This document shows positions 10,683 through 42,746 of a DNA stretch of 45,210 nt, piece by piece. Each line of letters starts with the position of its first letter. The first letter of the stretch is position 1. The position numbers and the translations under genes were made by a program. Source of the DNA: an uncultured Oscillospiraceae bacterium (GTDB lineage Bacteria > Bacillota > Clostridia > Oscillospirales > Acutalibacteraceae); assembly GCA_902478605.1 (NCBI GenBank), contig CABSLQ010000021.1:1-45210 (forward strand). The letters run 5' to 3'. Under the pieces are notes generated by a model that saw only the letters and a program-made list of their open reading frames with translations, did not search any database and had not been told where the DNA came from.

Positions 10683-10789
10683 CGTTTGCGCCTTTTTCGC
10701 GGCGCAAAAGTCCCTTGTATCCCAATGTATGCGGTATGGAAAGGAAATATGCCAAAAAGCGGCGGGCCCGTCCAGGTCCCGCCGCCTGC

Positions 10790-11032
10790 CTATTCGATCA
10801 CGCGGTACAGCAGTGCGGCGTCACTCTTCGCCGCCGTTTCCTGCACCGACACGACCTGCACCTTCACCTGCCGGGTACCGAGCACCAGCTCAATCACGTC
10901 GCCCTCCTTCACGTCATAGGAAGCGCGGGCAGGCTTGCCGCCCACAAGCACCCGCCCCGCATCGCACGCTTCGTTGGCCACGGTGCGGCGCTTGATAAGC
11001 CGCGACACCTTCAGGTATTTGTCCAGCCGCAT
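10790..11032 (-). CDS. yabO: S4-domain RNA-binding protein (YabO/Hsp15-like)
   Basis: MRLDKYLKVSRLIKRRTVANEACDAGRVLVGGKPARASYDV… aligns with B. subtilis YabO. Start at ATG 11032 with an AAAGGAGGG RBS. Confidence 0.85.
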   Translation of the reverse strand: MRLDKYLKVSRLIKRRTVANEACDAGRVLVGGKPARASYDVKEGDVIELVLGTRQVKVQVVSVQETAAKSDAALLYRVIE

Positions 11033-11052
11033 ATTGTCCCTCCTTTCACACA

Positions 11053-11078
11053 AAAAGCCGCCCGGAACCGGACGGCTT
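11053..11078 (-). repeat. 26-nt palindromic element copy 1 (hairpin/terminator immediately upstream of the yabO RBS)
   Basis: AAAGCCGCCCGG-AA-CCGGACGGCTTT, 11/12 bp stem. On the minus strand it is followed by UUUUUGUGUG, then the RBS. Confidence 0.6.
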
Positions 11079-11189
11079 TCCGCGTGTCGACAAAGTCGAC
11101 GCGCTGCTGGACGGGGACGCCGGATCGCAGCGGCTCGCTTTGCTCACCTTGCTTCCATCTGTCTCCGCCAGTGCCGCCCCTGCTCTTGA

Positions 11190-11224
11190 AAAAAGGAGGG
11201 AACACGCCGTGTTTCCTCCTTTTT
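11190..11224 (-). terminator. strong bidirectional-type hairpin terminator (probable hup terminator)
   Basis: 16-bp stem AAAAAGGAGGGAACAC / GTGTTTCCTCCTTTTT with a 3-nt loop. It is flanked by an A-run and a T-run, so there is a U-tract on either strand. Confidence 0.6.
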
Positions 11225-11237
11225 CGCTTATAAGGAA

Positions 11238-11266
11238 TGTTTCCGAGGCGCATGTCCTCGGAAACA
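11238..11266 (-). repeat. perfect 11-bp hairpin TGTTTCCGAGG/CCTCGGAAACA
   Basis: Directly adjacent to the 11190-11224 hairpin. The flanking GGAAACACG (11260-11268) is also complementary to CGTGTTTCC (11208-11216) of the neighbouring hairpin. Confidence 0.5.
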
Positions 11267-11316
11267 CGGGAATATAGAATCGTCACACCCTTGTGCCGAT
11301 TTTCTCCCGACAGATT

Positions 11317-11342
11317 GAAGCCGCCCGGAACCGGGCGGCTTC
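11317..11342 (-). repeat. 26-nt palindromic element copy 2 (just downstream of the hup stop)
   Basis: GAAGCCGCCCGG-AA-CCGGGCGGCTTC, perfect 12-bp stem. Near-identical to the copy at 11053-11078. Confidence 0.6.
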
Positions 11343-11357
11343 TGCAATGGACCCTGC

Positions 11358-11633
11358 TTATTTCGAAACGGCGTCCTTGAAAGCCTTGCCGGCTTTAAAA
11401 ACAGGCTGCTTGGAAGCCGGGATGGTGATGGCTTCCTTCGTGCGGGGATTGCGGCCAGTTCTCGCTTCGCGGGCACGCACTTCGAAGGTACCGAAACCGA
11501 CGAGCTGCACTTTATCGCCACCGGCGAGTGCCTCTTCAACGGATTCCAGGACCGCGGCAACGGCCTTTTCGGCGTCTTTCTTGGTCAGTTCGGCCTTCTC
11601 GGCAACGGAAGCGATGAGTTCTACCTTGTTCAT
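11358..11633 (-). CDS. hup: DNA-binding protein HU
   Basis: [91 protein letters not shown], 91 aa. Start set at the internal ATG 11633. Confidence 0.95.
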
Positions 11634-11716
11634 GATACTGTACCTCCTAGATTTTATACACCAGCGGGTTACACCGCGCATGGACAATAAATAAAAAGGC
11701 GTCCGCCACGGAAAAA

Positions 11717-12514
11717 TCAGCCGCGCTTGGCTTCGGCCCACAGGGCGTCAAGCTCCTCCAGCGATGCGTCCTGCATATCGATCCCCCGGTCTCCCGCCAG
11801 CCGTTCCACCGCCGCAAAACGGCGGATAAACTTATCGGTCGCATCGGTAAGCGCCTGCTCCGCGTCCGCATGGACAAACCGGGACACGTTTACGGCGGAG
11901 AAGAGCAGGTCGCCCAATTCCTCCTCCACATGGGCGGCATCCCCCTGCGCTATGGCTTCCTTAAGTTCGCGCGTTTCGCTGTCAAGCGCCTCGAGCGCGC
12001 CGGATACGTCCGGCCAGTCGAAGCCCACCCGGCGGGCACGGCTCTGCACCTTGGCGGCCCGCATGAGGGCGGGCAGGGTGCGCGGTACGCTGCCGAGCAG
12101 CTCCGCCTGTGTCTTGCCGCCTTTGGTCTCGCGCTTGATGGCATCCCAGTTGCGCAGCACCTGCCCGGCGCTGTCCGCCGTCTCCTGTCCGAACACATGG
12201 GGGTGGCGGATAATCAGCTTCTTGCAGATGCCGTCCACCACATCGGCAAAGGAGAAAACGCCCTTTTCCTCTTCGATGCGGGCATGAAACACCACCTGCA
12301 GCAGCACGTCGCCGAGCTCCTCTTCCAAGGCGGCGGCATCGGCATTGCCGATGGCTTCGAGCGCCTCGTGTGTCTCCTCGAGGAAATCGGAGCGAATGCT
12401 CTCGTGCGTCTGCTCCCGGTCCCAGGGGCAGCCCTCGGGCGAGCGCAGCAGGCGCATGATTTCCAGCAAATCGTCCATCCCGTATGTGTCTTTGAACGTG
12501 AAGGAAACCGCCAT
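11717..12514 (-). CDS. mazG: nucleoside triphosphate pyrophosphohydrolase MazG (YabN)
   Basis: Tandem MazG domains (…EEAYEVLEAI-like [10 protein letters not shown]…[15 protein letters not shown]…). Confidence 0.9.
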
Positions 12515-12618
12515 ACTACCTCTTCCCAACCGGTGAATTTCGCGCATGCTGGTATTATATTACCCTATCCATCCGCATTTTTCAAGTAGTTGCGCAATTT
12601 TTTCACCTTTCGGCAGGC

Positions 12619-31641: not shown

Positions 31642-31650
31642 AGCAAAAAA

Positions 31651-31691
31651 GTCCCCGCAGAGCATCGGCTCTGCGGGGACCTTTGTTGTTT
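31651..31691 (+). terminator. rho-independent terminator of the nad operon
   Basis: GTCCCCGCAGAGC-ATCG-GCTCTGCGGGGAC followed by CTTTGTTGTTT. Confidence 0.75.
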
Positions 31692-37525: not shown

Positions 37526-37600
37526 GTGGGGCGGAAAGCCCGGATGGTTGCCCGGCGCGTGCTTGCCTCCTCTTTTTCCCGCCGCCTTTTTGACAGATGA

Positions 37601-37643
37601 ACGCCGCCCCGGCCGAAACAGCCGGGGCGGCGTCTTGTGTTAT
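37601..37643 (+). terminator. second hairpin terminator in the convergent floT/serpin gap
   Basis: ACGCCGCCCCGGC-CGAAACA-GCCGGGGCGGCGT followed by CTTGTGTTAT. Confidence 0.55.
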
Positions 37644-42711: not shown

Positions 42712-42746
42712 TGAAAAAGAAGCCAGCGCCTAAACGGCGCTGGCTT
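42712..42746 (-). terminator. rho-independent terminator of the surface-protein gene
   Basis: AAGCCAGCGCC-TAAAC-GGCGCTGGCTT. On the minus strand it is followed by CUUUUUCACC. Confidence 0.7.

Follow-up and report, generated by a model that had tools for sequence, protein, structure and literature searches.

Serial terminator hairpins in a hup-yabO spacer, probably produced by a recent insertion that doubled the hup terminator

The spacer between hup and yabO in an uncultured Oscillospiraceae bacterium (positions 11033-11357, 325 bp, of the stretch of 45,210 nucleotides analysed here, hereafter the window) is densely structured. In the account that we consider probable, the terminator of hup has been doubled by an insertion of 263 nt that is recent and specific to the lineage; it consists of 239 nt of orphan, non-coding sequence and a 24-nt hairpin duplication. 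The hairpins are of an ordinary kind, intrinsic terminators, in an unusual and young arrangement. The locus is a cautionary case, in which dense structure and tempting alternative pairings give way to ordinary terminators and a young species-specific insertion, and in which most of the question is decided by a sister lineage with a 59-nt "empty site".

The genes of the locus lie on the minus strand in the order MurJ/SpoVB-like flippase, mazG (11717-12547), hup, yabO, yabP, yabQ, divIC and the S1-domain gene yabR; coordinates of the spacer features are collected in Table 1. The spacer is identical in eight independent assemblies of the same species, with the contig present in ENA, Logan and NCBI assemblies, and it is therefore not an assembly artefact. 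Two short contigs of this species from Logan/ENA (L058:1 and L060:1) break inside the spacer, one within the 3' arm of P1 and the other where H2 ends on its 3' side, and the contig of one relative (L063) likewise ends at the yabO start. Such ends are more likely due to lost coverage or a broken assembly graph at strong GC hairpins than to repeats. A literature search on yabO, yabP and hup returned nothing relevant.

Table 1. Features of the hup-yabO locus, listed from hup towards yabO (window positions).
Feature	Position	Strand	Description
hup (HU DNA-binding protein)	CDS 11358-11636	minus	Pfam Bac_DNA_binding, E = 5e-36; TAA stop 11358-11360
P2, hup-proximal copy of the terminator hairpin	11317-11342	minus	GAAGCCGCCCGG-TT-CCGGGCGGCTTC; -24.3 kcal/mol
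Orphan core	11079-11316 (239 nt counting 11317, shared with P2)	minus	absent from the closest relative, L061
Sigma-70-like match TCGGCA-17-TATATT	11271-11299, toward yabO	minus	consensus scan, 9/12, weak; predicted start ~11264, at the 5' foot of H1
H1	11238-11248 / 11256-11266	minus	perfect 11-bp hairpin, 7-nt loop; -19.0 kcal/mol
H2	11190-11224	both	16/17-bp palindrome, 17-nt arms 94% complementary; A-run on one side, T-run on the other
GC-rich part of the core (~66%)	11105-11189	minus	without promoter match or coding signal
Mini-hairpin GCGTGTCGAC-AAA-GTCGACGCGC	11082-11104	both	10-bp stem; GTCGAC-AAA-GTCGAC core at 11086-11100
P1, yabO-proximal copy of the terminator	11047-11086; core 11055-11078	minus	extended stem of 18 bp, then UUUUUGUGUG
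yabO Shine-Dalgarno AAAGGAGGGA	11037-11046	minus	from the sequence
yabO (S4-domain, YabO/RqcP-like)	10790-11032	minus	Pfam S4, E = 7e-13; ATG 11030-11032

On the minus strand the spacer folds at -161 kcal/mol, against -123 +/- 5.5 kcal/mol for shuffled sequences (z = -7.0). The initial annotation had described two near-identical palindromes (11053-11078 and 11317-11342), a large stem (H2), an adjacent perfect 11-bp stem (11238-11266, H1), a mini-hairpin and a pairing between the two stems, and every one of these was recovered at its coordinates, far beyond chance expectation. The 24-nt cores of the palindromes (11055-11078 and 11318-11341) are identical at 23 of 24 positions and lie in direct orientation. 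Extended to 26 nt, both are still self-complementary, with an outer A-T pair in one and G-C in the other; no such pair of palindromes is expected by chance (100 shuffles). The single imperfect pair of H2 is G.U on the plus strand and A.C on the minus strand, so that the hairpin is slightly more stable on the plus strand (-21.9 kcal/mol, against -19.0 on the minus strand). Its A-run/stem/T-run layout makes it terminator-like on both strands, and on the gene-sense strand it is followed by U6 (UUUUUUC).

Comparison with related loci identifies the two palindromes, which we term P1 and P2. In the closest relative, L061 (YabO 91% and HU 97% identical), the hup-yabO spacer measures 59 nt and contains one hairpin, AAAAGCCGCCCGTGTGGGCGGTTTTTTGTTTGAAAGGAGGG (AAAAGCCGCCCGTGTGGGCGGTTTTTT, then GTTTGAAAGGAGGGAAGATATG). 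The window has the same left flank, followed by P2, 239 nt, P1 and the same right flank (TTTTTGTGTGAAAGGAGGGACAATATG); deleting one 263-nt unit in silico renders it colinear with L061, with 104 of 119 positions identical. The right flank of P1 is orthologous to the terminator tail and ribosome-binding site of L061, and P2 begins 16 nt past the hup stop codon, at the position of the terminator in relatives. More distant relatives (YabO 82-88% identical) carry a hup terminator of the type AAGCCGnCC...GGnCGGCTT, 12-22 nt past the stop codon, followed by unrelated sequence of varied length. A terminator-like hairpin is present in 51 of 65 distinct related hup-yabO spacers (median 86 nt, maximum 305), in most cases 10-35 nt past the hup stop, and many of these hairpins end just 15-35 nt ahead of the yabO ATG.

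Ten orthologous hairpins, including P1 and P2, were aligned and examined for covariation. The alignment has 92% of its cells paired and compensatory changes at four pairs, a covariation score reached by none of 500 shuffles, and sliding the partners reduces pairing to 36-55%. Several of the hairpins use U.G pairs that are possible solely on the gene-sense strand. P1 is one of them: its sole mismatch is a G.U pair on that strand only, and it folds at -20.6 kcal/mol in the sense orientation against -14.3 in the antisense. The single terminator at the same place in relatives, the colinear excision, the covariation and the sense-only U.G pairs together indicate that P1 and P2 are two copies of the hup intrinsic terminator, judged from sequence comparison, and not members of a dispersed repeat.

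P1, P2 and H2 all have stable stems on the gene-sense strand (-20.6, -24.3 and -19.0 kcal/mol), and the helix of P1 and P2 stands past a stop codon, at orthologous loci, maintained by compensatory changes. P1 and H2 share the remaining marks of known intrinsic terminators, a GC-rich stem, a loop of 3-4 nt and a 3' U-run; by sequence form both are canonical, and both are predicted to terminate transcription. The locus differs from the usual arrangement in having three such hairpins in series within 325 nt, two of them near-identical, and in that the copy adjoining the stop codon has no U-tract: the tail of P2 is CAAUCUGU, with UUCAAUCUGU 3' of the stem. Having lost its U-tract, P2 is probably leaky or serves only as a stabiliser.

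The exact junctions of the inserted unit, which comprises the core plus one copy of the repeat, are ambiguous within the 24 nt of the repeat. The left part of the core has 48% GC and holds the promoter-like site, H1 and H2; the right part has 66% GC and is featureless apart from the mini-hairpin. Searches for its origin returned nothing: the core has no second copy in the 45-kb window (blastn-short), no similarity in 92 related loci (blastn and nhmmer), no match in plasmid and phage collections (blastn, "distant" setting), and no six-frame match at E <= 10 among 5.8 billion proteins, and the five open reading frames of the spacer have no Pfam match. Scans of viral and JGI metagenome contigs for H2, H1 and a 25-mer of the core were likewise negative, these being exact-pattern scans that are blind to diverged copies. 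An origin of the core as a decayed tandem duplicate of hup was rejected, P1 and P2 being 96% identical while the core has no similarity to hup or its upstream region. Polarity, that is, an insertion here and not a deletion in the relatives, would follow from parsimony over about five nearer outgroups. Within the species the spacer shows no differences, as does yabO; with a local divergence of just ~0.2%, this invariance is uninformative on constraint, though compatible with it.

The suggestion that the palindromes belong to a REP-like family found no support. They resemble REP, BIME and REPIN elements in being GC-rich palindromes outside genes, almost identical to each other and about 24-26 nt long. 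Unlike such elements, they occur as two copies only, in direct orientation, both flanking one insertion and occupying the position of the hup terminator, with no third copy in the 45-kb window and no dispersed family there or in the searched collections; their sequence descends from the single-copy terminator of relatives. Every other long hairpin in the window has a sequence of its own. A search of species-representative genomes with the palindrome 22-mer (AGCCGYCCGGWWCCGGRCGGCT) returned 50 stretches from many phyla, each a single site, none beside hup or yabO and at most three per genome, the source species not being among the genomes hit; there were also two unrelated viral hits. The only genome with more than two hits was a Bacteroidota MAG (MAG197, JBLMZS01), where the 22-mer occurs on three contigs (L001, L004 and L008); this MAG may possess a small family of palindromic repeats that has nothing to do with the hup-yabO locus.

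In a related proposal, the 263-nt unit would be a mobile element of the non-autonomous kind, or would have been left by an uncharacterised insertion process that targets intrinsic-terminator hairpins and duplicates ~18-24 nt; in an alternative form, the palindromes would belong to a REP-like family. Insertions that target terminators or palindromes are familiar: class C group II introns insert after intrinsic terminators, and IS1397/ISKpn1 and IS110-type elements insert in REPs. The window resembles these cases, and MITEs, in that foreign DNA sits at a terminator hairpin between direct copies of the target (a 24-nt repeat, 23/24 identical), and the site is empty in L061. Extra DNA flanked by repeats is also found in the hup-yabO spacers of two other lineages, making three of about 30 long spacers in all. 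In L116 (1376-1491) it lies between perfect 23-nt direct repeats, TGTAATGGCGACGAGGAAAATGG, at a spacing of 93; in L147 (1355-1456), GGGCCGCTTTT[T/A]GATTTC occurs twice (an 18-nt repeat, spacing 84), so that the 3' half of the hup terminator is present in two copies together with its tail.

Several observations nevertheless make a mobile unit quite unlikely. Neither the core nor the palindrome has a further copy in 45 kb of the same genome, the core was absent from all of the collections named above, and the palindrome 22-mer recurs only as unrelated single sites in other phyla. The three inserts (window, L116 and L147) are unrelated to one another in sequence, and each was found only once. The insert has no intron or IS features in its 239 nt, and its ends (CAATCTGTC... 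and ...GACACGCGGA) are not complementary, so it lacks terminal inverted repeats; inverted repetition at the ends is confined to the duplicated palindrome. Finally, the 24-nt duplication is unusually long, far above the usual target-site duplication of 2-14 bp. This length also counts against the account that we favour, an insertion with target duplication, since it exceeds most known transposition footprints and neither a mechanism nor a donor sequence was found. A broader version, in which the unit of the window and the inserts of L116 and L147 are all footprints of an undescribed process that recognises terminator hairpins and duplicates ~18-24 nt, with the insert alternatively or additionally being an orphan small-RNA gene formed by the promoter-like site, H1 and H2, we regard as unlikely. 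If it were true and recurrent, terminator-targeted insertion with long target duplication would be a modest addition to the known modes of intergenic evolution.

Turning to regulation, the initial annotation had read the alternative pairings as possible attenuation control of a yabOPQ-divIC-yabR operon. Its description of the stems as terminator-like stands, as does the existence of an alternative 10-bp pairing; attenuation, like the repeat family, is not supported. In this scheme an antiterminator formed by 11260-11269 and 11207-11216 would compete with H1 and the H2 terminator. The 10-nt complementarity is perfect, with roughly 0.05 such pairs expected by chance in 325 nt (a rough estimate), and as in attenuators and riboswitch expression platforms one segment could pair with either of two partners, one of them a terminator arm. 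The apparent mutual exclusivity is explained by a 9-nt motif common to H1 and H2, GGAAACA(CG)/(CG)TGTTTCC, since related arms of any two hairpins can cross-pair. In contrast to known switches, the alternatives are unequal in energy: folding of both conformations gave -23.2 kcal/mol for the antiterminator against -38.0 for H1 plus H2, a deficit of 14.8 kcal/mol, and a pair probability of ~0 in the ensemble. The 3' arm of H1 would moreover be transcribed before the competing H2 arm and would capture the shared 5' segment, and the P1 terminator would still follow.

Nor does the spacer contain a recognisable sensing element. No Rfam family reached its gathering score in the window or in the loci of 15 relatives; at E <= 10, matches in 10900-11500 were at chance level, the best scoring 21 bits against a 40-bit cutoff (Rhizobiales-2), together with terminator-only matches to CsrC and P17. 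There is no convincing leader peptide: open reading frames with a Shine-Dalgarno sequence start only inside the H2 loop, and none belongs to a Pfam family. The element is absent from all relatives, whose spacers are short and unrelated, and no similar leader precedes yabO in about 90 related hup-yabO loci. Taken together, these findings make a yabO attenuator highly improbable, and the serial-terminator spacer would be no ligand- or translation-sensing switch.

The downstream genes also argue against a leader of the proposed operon. Directly after yabO, the minus strand carries a separate terminator (stem 10759-10786, UUUUU at 10754-10758, -26 kcal/mol), and upstream of yabP it carries GCATATT (10746-10752), 14 nt and CATACATT (10724-10731), a match to the Bacillus sigma-E promoter consensus. 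With its own terminator after yabO and a sigma-E-type promoter before yabP, the locus does not present the spacer as the leader of yabOPQ-divIC-yabR; the arrangement suggests a monocistronic yabO and, separate from it, a yabP-yabQ-divIC-yabR unit under sporulation control.

A further pairing involves the ribosome-binding site of yabO. Its Shine-Dalgarno 10-mer recurs inverted in H2 (11192-11201), which makes the 3' arm of H2 (UCCCUCCUUU) a perfect anti-Shine-Dalgarno for yabO, 145 nt upstream. The match is probably a by-product of the A-run and GGAGG arm of H2, and the segment is normally sequestered within that hairpin.

It is possible, though doubtful, that the insert carries an orphan small-RNA gene of ~78 nt, starting near 11264 downstream of the sigma-70-like match, running through H1 and stopping at H2 and its U6. 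The promoter-like match lies exactly upstream of H1, the scan having found two matches in 2.4 kb where 0.6 were expected; downstream of it come two stable hairpins and a U-run of canonical type, and the spacer is invariant in the eight assemblies. These signals are consensus matches only, the promoter matching at 9 of 12 positions with no TG extension. Invariance carries little information at the local divergence noted above, H2 folds slightly better on the opposite strand, and there is no Rfam match. No homologue occurs in any relative or searched collection. The small-RNA reading is compatible with the insertion scenario, to which it adds a function.

The terminator-duplication account starts from the layout of relatives, where one GC-rich hairpin with a U-tract lies 10-35 nt past the hup stop and often immediately precedes the ribosome-binding site of yabO. 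Too little sequence separates terminator and ribosome-binding site in such relatives to accommodate a promoter, so yabO presumably depends on partial read-through from hup, itself a very strongly expressed gene. In the window, a recent insertion within or next to the hup terminator would then have duplicated 24 nt of its target. P2 would be left as a leaky terminator, or merely a 3' hairpin stabilising the hup mRNA; the insert would supply a weak promoter-like site, H1, and in H2 a strong A-run/stem/U-run terminator; and P1, coming last, would still have the U-tract of the ancestor and adjoin the yabO Shine-Dalgarno. As a net effect, yabO would be better insulated from transcription of hup, with less read-through expected after the insertion. 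This account is challenged by its own outcome, because three serial terminators ahead of yabO leave its transcription unexplained; a consensus scan found no promoter match between H2 and P1. More generally, the ribosome-binding site of yabO directly follows the hup terminator in many Clostridia, an arrangement which implies that the amount of the YabO/RqcP-like protein would be set by read-through from hup.

Further A-run/stem/T-run palindromes, long, perfect and each unique in sequence, occur in the window at 1971-2003, 31647-31684, 37600-37634 and 42720-42746, and give a picture of the typical, often two-way terminators of this genome.

Beyond the repeat-flanked inserts, two further lineages carry extra DNA between hup and yabO. 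In L119 the spacer measures 1128 nt and contains, past the hup terminator, an extra gene for a predicted membrane protein of ~310 amino acids with a Cys-rich N-terminal part, which marks the site as an insertion hotspot, with extra DNA ranging from 66 nt up to a whole gene. In L072 (100-310), the hup terminator is followed by TTTTGTTTTTGAAAGCGGGACAA, a decayed copy of the ancestral tail and yabO ribosome-binding site. Unrelated sequence of ~125 nt then leads to a new ribosome-binding site; L072 represents a further, independent insertion at nearly the same position.
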